DNA from: Escherichia coli
GTDB lineage: Bacteria > Pseudomonadota > Gammaproteobacteria > Enterobacterales > Enterobacteriaceae
Direction: 5' to 3' (one strand)
NCBI RefSeq assembly: GCF_050320075.1
Contig: NZ_CP190018.1
DNA length: 64,000 bases
Position numbers and translations under genes: made by a program. Below the pieces are notes generated by a model. It did no database searches and was not told where the DNA came from. It was given only the letters and a program-made list of their open reading frames with translations. How positions within the stretch are numbered: the first letter of the stretch is position 1; each line of letters begins with the position of its first letter. Positions 25,819 to 26,311 of this stretch are shown here, piece by piece.

Positions 25819-26031
25819 TTACAGGCTGGTTACGTTACCAGCTGCCGGGCCTTTAGCGCCGCTTTCGATGGTGAAGGACACTTTCTGACCTTCGTCCAGA
25901 GATTTGTAACCATCGTTCTGGATAGCAGAGAAGTGTACGAACACGTCTTTAGAGCCATCGTCAGGAGTGATGAAGCCGAAGCCTTTGTCAGCGTTGAACC
26001 ATTTTACGATACCAGTCATTTTACCGTACAT
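25819..26031 (-). CDS. cspA: major cold-shock protein CspA, 70 aa
   Basis: ORF track 25819..26031; [34 protein letters not shown]... with RNP1/RNP2 motifs. Confidence 0.95.
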
Positions 26032-26190
26032 AGTGTATTACCTTTAATAATTAAGTGTGCCTTTCGGCGATATGGCGTGCTTTACAGATTTTGAAGCGTT
26101 AAAGGAATGTGCACTACGAGGGGTATCAACGATAACTCTTGAAGGGACTTGCCTTACTACACTGCTTTAATGGTCTGTACGTCAAACCGT
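26032..26190 (-). promoter_or_regulatory. cspA 159-nt 5' UTR (RNA thermosensor) including cold-box element
   Basis: Transcript 5' end ACGGTTTGACGTACAGACC is the reverse complement of 26172-26190; cold box TGACGTACAGA at 26184-26174; distance to ATG is 159 nt, matching the known leader length. Confidence 0.75.
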
Positions 26191-26198
26191 TGATGTGC

Positions 26199-26227
26199 AT
26201 TAAGCCACGCATTGGCGGGTGATGCAA
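26199..26227 (-). promoter_or_regulatory. cspA sigma70 promoter (-35 TTGCAT, 17-bp spacer, -10 CTTAAT) with AT-rich UP element upstream
   Basis: Minus-strand hexamers at 26227-26222 and 26204-26199, about 8 nt before the inferred transcript start at 26190. Confidence 0.7.
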
Positions 26228-26311
26228 CAATTATTTTTCATATTTATGATTAATCGGTTGGAAAACGGTCCTGTCATCAGGACCGTAAACAGCAATAAAG
26301 TGGATAAAAGT

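Follow-up and report, generated by a model that had tools for sequence, protein, structure and literature searches.

A rare, probably near-neutral Ser2Tyr variant of the cold-shock gene cspA in Escherichia coli

A single-base change in the second codon of the cold-shock gene cspA replaces Ser2 with Tyr in a 64,000-nucleotide stretch of Escherichia coli DNA (contig NZ_CP190018.1 of assembly GCF_050320075.1; hereafter the window). The change can be held with considerable confidence to be a real, recent, lineage SNP of single origin and probably near-neutral effect, such that an ordinary chromosomal cspA would carry a rare, recent missense SNP inherited within one clonal sub-lineage. Near-neutrality is the most likely reading on account of the position of the change and the rarity of the allele, with the net effect on fitness most likely being neutral or slightly deleterious. 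Since residue 2 is in neither RNP1 nor RNP2, Tyr2 CspA should still act as the major cold-shock RNA chaperone, with two side effects expected, namely retention of the initiator Met in Tyr2 CspA and loss of one C:G pair from the weak 5-bp hairpin that follows the AUG of the thermosensing mRNA. As a discovery the allele matters very little. The exact allele is already catalogued under its own RefSeq accession (WP_106475260.1) and the gene and its control region are likewise known, while the literature on cspA biology and on the carrier and related strains, which was searched by these subjects rather than by the allele itself, yielded no paper on Tyr2.

The cspA locus and its control region

The gene lies on the minus strand of the window in an open reading frame the protein of which starts MYGK, reference CspA starting MSGK. 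The coding features are as follows.

25819..26031, minus strand: cspA coding sequence, Ser2Tyr allele, 70 codons and a stop (open reading frame list and translation)
26027, minus strand: SNP in codon 2, TCC to TAC, Ser2Tyr (base-by-base comparison with E2865, K-12 and MLI108K3)

Position 26027, equivalent to position +164 of the cspA mRNA, has A on the coding strand (T on the plus strand). Nearly all other E. coli, K-12 MG1655 included, have C (G on the plus strand) at this site. Across the 581-nt stretch running from promoter to terminator, most E. coli genomes (e.g., E2865) mismatch the window only at this base, with K-12 showing a second difference in the coding sequence at window position 25945 (GAC versus GAT, Asp29) that is synonymous. 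An earlier note on this DNA had read Tyr at position 2 of CspA and, tentatively taking MSGK as the start of the K-12 protein, had proposed a one-base change from TCC to TAC at 26027. The translation and the comparison with E2865 and K-12 agree with it on each point, MSGK being the start in K-12 (NP_418012.1), in RefSeq WP_000014594.1 and in PDB entries 2L15 and 1MJC. The idea that Tyr2 might also be the reference residue was ruled out on alignment, Ser2 being found in K-12, in the common RefSeq protein and in the PDB entries, with no reference CspA sequence having Tyr2.

Apart from codon 2 the gene is an ordinary cspA. It sits between yiaG and hokA/glyS, its usual chromosomal place, in a gene order (yiaD-ghrB-yiaF-yiaG-cspA-hokA-glyS) common to K-12 and other E. 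coli, and its product, identical to WP_106475260.1, shares 69 of 70 residues with K-12 CspA (b3556, NP_418012.1; WP_000014594.1; PDB 1MJC, 3MEF and 2L15). The product matches the CspA of PDB 2L15 with a phmmer E value of 3e-43 and PF00313 (CSD) is on record for the same protein. In the translation both RNP1 (KGFGFI, residues 16-21) and RNP2 (VFVHF, residues 30-34) are unchanged, with F18, F31 and H33 all present. By synteny and near-identity the window gene is the E. coli cspA orthologue (b3556) and not a paralogue. CspB, CspG and CspI of E. coli, encoded at other loci than the window gene, are likewise 70-residue cold-shock-domain proteins, and their genes too combine a long leader with a cold box and a downstream box (PMC6719143). 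The Ser2 feature of reference CspA is absent, with Tyr in its place. Ser2 characterises the reference allele and does not define the family, which leaves orthology unaffected.

Automated annotation at this locus has a quirk of its own. In almost all of the complete E. coli genomes listed, PGAP labels the cspA locus as [quoted passage not shown], and the canonical CspA (WP_000014594.1) is likewise labelled CspE, the name cspA appearing only on occasional records. The CspE label could mislead automated comparisons.

Upstream of the coding sequence, positions 26032-26320 are base-for-base the same as in K-12 MG1655. The control elements, all on the minus strand, are listed below, with the transcription start set at 26190 by identity to K-12.

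26228..26258, minus strand: AT-rich stretch upstream of the -35 hexamer, where the K-12 cspA promoter has its UP element (K-12 identity)
26199..26227, minus strand: cspA promoter core (sequence read, motif positions and identity to K-12)
26227-26222, minus strand: -35 hexamer, TTGCAT (identity to K-12)
17-bp spacer between the -35 and -10 hexamers, minus strand: TG at 26207-26206, one base upstream of the -10
26204-26199, minus strand: -10 hexamer, CTTAAT (identity to K-12)
26032..26190, minus strand: 5' untranslated leader of 159 nt (K-12 identity)
26184-26174, minus strand: cold box, TGACGTACAGA (single occurrence, within the first hairpin of the Rfam model)
26044-26041, minus strand: Shine-Dalgarno AAGG, 9 nt upstream of the ATG (motif AAGGTAATACACTATG at 26044-26029)
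26006..26019, minus strand: downstream box, ATGACTGGTATCGT, codons 5-9, unchanged (identity to K-12)
25767..25794, minus strand: intrinsic terminator, a stem of 12 pairs then a T run (terminator scan; last hairpin of the Rfam model)

The promoter hexamers, the 159-nt leader and the cold box had all been reported by the earlier note at the expected spacing, and each was recovered where it had been placed, with the hexamers and the leader identical to K-12 and the leader of the length published for the cspA 5'UTR, which is 159 bases with a cold box (PMC6719143). The downstream box has also been described (PMC6386945; PMC6719143). Identity to K-12 extends to the promoter, leader, cold box, Shine-Dalgarno sequence, downstream box and terminator hairpin, with codon 2 (TCC for Ser in K-12, TAC for Tyr in the window) and the synonymous difference at 25945 setting the two genes apart. 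Judged from sequence, the transcriptional and mRNA-level control of the window cspA is unchanged. The function of the K-12 cspA promoter was reportedly established by Tanabe et al. in 1992 and the role of its UP element by Mitta et al. in 1997.

A generic sigma-70 consensus scan called no sigma-70-like site at the cspA promoter. The two hexamers depart too far from consensus for it, and the missed call is no evidence against the promoter, which was identified via sequence identity to K-12 and the published description of the leader rather than by the scan. At the RNA level, the Rfam model RF01766 (cspA thermoregulator) matches 26191-25764 over its full length (model positions 1-428 of 428) with 493.4 bits and E = 1.4e-140, the gathering score being 78 bits. 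The alignment begins at 26191, one base upstream of the start at 26190. Standard pairs are formed at 123 of the 124 consensus pairs in the window, the sole exception being pair 165:180, where the window has A/G in place of the C:G of the model. The RF01766 structure is said to derive from Giuliodori et al. in 2010.

Carriers, frequency and origin of the allele

For a single SNP a comparison with chance is not applicable, and the test applied was whether the base is genuine. The 581-nt locus is 100% identical in two of the 5,422 complete E. coli genomes containing it, and a 61-mer centred on the SNP is matched exactly in two of 5,421, every other genome having at least one mismatch. Among complete genomes the two carriers come from chicken faeces in China (YZLc1-3) and from human urine in Burkina Faso (Ec-U3), with the carrier records NZ_CP123240.1 and NZ_CM192149.1 listing WP_106475260.1. 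In a larger public collection the exact Tyr2 protein was found in 112 contigs (199 index blocks), all named E. coli. The three contigs sampled, which come from other assemblies, share the flanking haplotype of the window, with 99.97-100% identity to it over 3.7-6.2 kb.

By this recurrence in public genomes and contigs the Tyr2 base is genuine, its occurrence in two independent complete genomes and in 112 contigs excluding a one-off sequencing error. The contrary reading, in which sequencing or assembly went wrong at 26027 and the true codon is the canonical Ser2, could draw on the high conservation of CspA and on the 5,419 of 5,421 complete genomes without the exact Tyr2 61-mer, but it is hardly credible given that the identical allele appears in two genomes sequenced independently from different countries and hosts, as well as in at least three further draft assemblies. 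In addition, the one sampled contig reaching past IS150 (L005) carries the derived glyS N446S SNP too, so linking the allele to a second derived change, and the site is in neither a homopolymer nor a repeat. An error was thus ruled out by the recurrence of the base across independent assemblies on one haplotype.

YZLc1-3 and Ec-U3 resemble the window well beyond cspA. Their protein, labelled CspE by PGAP, is identical to that of the window, and about 24 kb around the locus is 100% identical, including the IS150 beside hokA and the glyS variant WP_106475261.1. In place of the one IS1 of the window, the YZLc1-3 record has two copies around a yiaA/yiaB remnant, and it differs at one further mismatch in 29.7 kb. 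Since the IS1 arrangement and this mismatch differ, the window is a close relative or another assembly of the YZLc1-3 lineage and not that exact record.

As far as the compared genomes and contigs indicate, Ser2Tyr is a recent, single-origin SNP of one clonal sub-lineage, its single origin following from the same flanking haplotype in the three sampled contigs. Of the Ser2 genomes, MLI108K3 was the nearest found, with only nine differences from the window in 63.2 kb. When these differences were polarised with K-12, six of the nine proved derived on the window side, comprising avtA P374L, avtA M288V, glyS N446S, cspA S2Y, dppD R127H and one non-coding site in a repeat. The polarity of the last, at 37628, is less certain because it lies inside an RtT repeat. 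Four of the derived SNPs are transitions and two are G to T. A mutator lineage with a G:C to T:A bias, which the C to A change in cspA had brought to mind, was considered and rejected, the six derived SNPs being of mixed spectrum and bearing no such signature.

The coding SNPs relative to MLI108K3, at window positions 5465, 5724, 22977, 26027 and 42508, are all nonsynonymous. A count of five out of five is not significant, being expected about one time in four by chance on the assumption that roughly 75% of random coding changes are nonsynonymous. The two avtA changes fall within 260 bp of each other and form a small cluster. The variant protein accessions are near-consecutive (WP_106475259, WP_106475260, WP_106475261 and WP_106475264), which suggests that they were first registered from one genome. 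Taken as a set, the window SNPs look like young, unpurged changes at the level of the clone.

The 90% cluster that includes this protein also has low-frequency single-residue variants of CspA other than Tyr2, and therefore a rare cspA missense allele is not unusual. Residue 2 itself is Ser in all 14 other members of the cluster that were inspected, suggesting some constraint, one that Met removal or the RNA might impose, or neither of the two. The literature held nothing useful on the sequence type of YZLc1-3, Ec-U3, MLI108K3 and other strains, and the window contains no MLST genes. In practical terms, the SNP at 26027 provides a clean marker for one E. coli sub-lineage.

Expected effects on the protein and the mRNA

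In the protein, residue 2 belongs to the N-terminal tail that precedes beta-strand 1 and is part of neither RNP1 nor RNP2. PDB chains 1MJC, 3MEF and 8RXE each have 69 residues, with chain residues 2-69 aligning with residues 3-70 of the gene product. The initiator Met is thus probably removed from CspA as a rule, because these chains begin at the Ser2 position (chain residue 1), although PDB 2L15 is listed as a 70-residue chain that retains it. E. coli MetAP acts only on Met followed by a small penultimate residue, a Ser substitution having been fully processed and bulky residues not (PMC4141196). Since MetAP does not process Met before a bulky residue such as Tyr, Tyr2 CspA should keep its initiator Met.

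Such a change at the N-terminus could in principle be felt by the protein, whether through the retained Met-Tyr end, through Tyr acting as a ClpS N-degron, should the Met be lost by another route, or through the aromatic side chain, any of which might alter the stability of CspA or its binding or melting of RNA. In keeping with this, normal CspA chains in the PDB are 69 residues long, starting at the Ser2 position without the initiator Met, MetAP specificity predicts Met retention before Tyr, and aromatic side chains contribute to RNA melting by CspA, with even an aromatic tripeptide being somewhat active (PMC5397153). Yet chaperone activity depends on F18, F31 and H33 (PMC5397153), and residue 2 is away from all three in the tail before beta-strand 1, while 2L15 represents a 70-residue chain with its Met in place and the N-degron would need Met to be removed, contrary to the MetAP specificity rule. 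Nothing known about CspA suggests that Met retention matters. Residues 2-4 also differ in many E. coli Csp paralogues. The N-termini of CspB, CspG and CspI read MSNK. An altered protein of this kind is very unlikely, and a functional Tyr2 CspA is expected.

In the mRNA the same base falls in a short structural element of the Rfam consensus.

26012..26027, minus strand: short hairpin just 3' of the AUG (Rfam consensus structure), with 5' arm CCGGU, loop AAAAUG and 3' arm ACUGG in the reference

This 5-bp hairpin begins two bases after the AUG and A164 is the 5' base of its closing pair. In the cmscan alignment the non-standard pair 165:180 corresponds to the replacement of this closing C:G by an A/G mismatch, with the stem going from 5 bp to 4 bp. 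Every helix of the consensus can still form. Energy calculations for the local hairpin gave -4.8 kcal/mol with C164 and -2.4 kcal/mol with A164 at 37°C, and -8.4 and -5.4 kcal/mol, respectively, at 15°C. The hairpin is thus predicted to lose 2.4 kcal/mol of stability at 37°C, and between 3.0 and 3.2 kcal/mol at 10-15°C. The ensemble energy predicted for the full-length mRNA shifts by 0.03 kcal/mol at 37°C and by about 0.2 kcal/mol at 10-15°C. Only with a 187-nt fragment did the predicted minimum-energy fold at 10-15°C change, at a cost of 2.5-3.8 kcal/mol, thermodynamic prediction alone being incapable of reproducing the kinetically trapped cold form.

Translation of the cspA mRNA at 15°C needs the first nine codons together with the 5'UTR (PMC6386945), and the mapped contact of CspA on its own mRNA starts 9-12 nt after the AUG (PMC9947658). 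The SNP falls within the first nine codons and adjoins this CspA binding site, and for these reasons a modest regulatory effect is conceivable. Loss of the hairpin pair, if effective, would slightly ease the opening of the start of the coding region. The Rfam consensus pairs the 5'UTR with model positions of about 193-229, whereas the 37°C form of the cspA mRNA has been described as pairing the UTR with C232-G326. Going by the regions paired, the RF01766 consensus appears to resemble the published cold form and not the 37°C form.

On these grounds the broken hairpin pair might alter the folding of the thermosensor or its engagement by the 30S subunit or by CspA, thereby changing the output of CspA on cold shock, and could even be adaptive. 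The Rfam alignment does flag pair 165:180 as broken, the calculated local hairpin is weaker at both temperatures and the predicted cold fold of the 187-nt fragment shifts, with the requirement for the first nine codons in cold translation and the nearby CspA contact pointing the same way. Against this, the full-length ensemble is predicted to move very little, and the allele is rare and of single origin. In the genes for CspB, CspG and CspI codons 2-3 are UCA AAU, a sequence incompatible with the post-AUG stem. The bases of pair 165:180 are the second positions of the Ser2 and Gly7 codons, and because coding fixes both, conservation of the pair is no evidence for a needed helix. [quoted passage not shown] An RNA-level effect on CspA output is accordingly rated as quite unlikely, and the near-neutral lineage SNP remains the preferred reading.

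Taking hairpin and Met retention together, it is unlikely that the SNP measurably alters, by either or both routes, the amount of CspA made or kept after a temperature downshift. Were it to do so, the sub-lineage, with members from poultry and human urine, would have an altered cold-shock or low-temperature survival phenotype, and the allele would let the first-codon region of the cspA thermosensor be probed through one naturally occurring base change. Ser2Tyr hits both the residue that decides Met removal and the codons needed for translation in the cold, and could thus serve as a ready natural variant for dissecting the roles of RNA and protein.

Neighbouring features of the window

Several mobile and repeated elements lie on either side of cspA. 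IS150 occupies 23961-25405 between glyS and hokA, flanked by a clean 3-bp target duplication, AAG (23958-23960 and 25406-25408). In K-12 an IS150 lies at this junction to within 1-2 bp, in the opposite orientation and with about 41 bp of sequence on the hokA/sokA side missing, and the bases missing beside the K-12 element are kept in the window at 25406-25446. The history of these elements would be either that of an independent insertion at a hot spot or that of an inversion plus deletion of one insertion.

A single IS1 at approximately 18364-19134 replaces yiaB-yiaA, both of which are intact in MLI108K3. At the same spot YZLc1-3 has two IS1 copies around a 120-bp yiaA/yiaB remnant. The difference between the window and YZLc1-3 would reflect either IS1-IS1 recombination or collapse during assembly.

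Between yhjV and bcsG, at approximately 45690-47048, the window has three tandem units of Ldr-family type I toxin, with a period of about 484 bp and 95-97% identity, K-12 having a single ldrD/rdlD unit there. Downstream of tRNA-Pro (proK), at approximately 37446-37806, are two tandem repeats of about 190 bp annotated in RefSeq as "RtT sRNA", with K-12 unaligned over window positions of about 37722-37866, part of this stretch downstream of proK. Between cspA and hokA, at approximately 25520-25591, a 23-residue open reading frame listed by RefSeq (ysaE in K-12, "hypothetical protein" elsewhere) overlaps the 3' end of hokA on the opposite strand, its length being 72 nt in the window and in K-12 and 60 nt in E2865.
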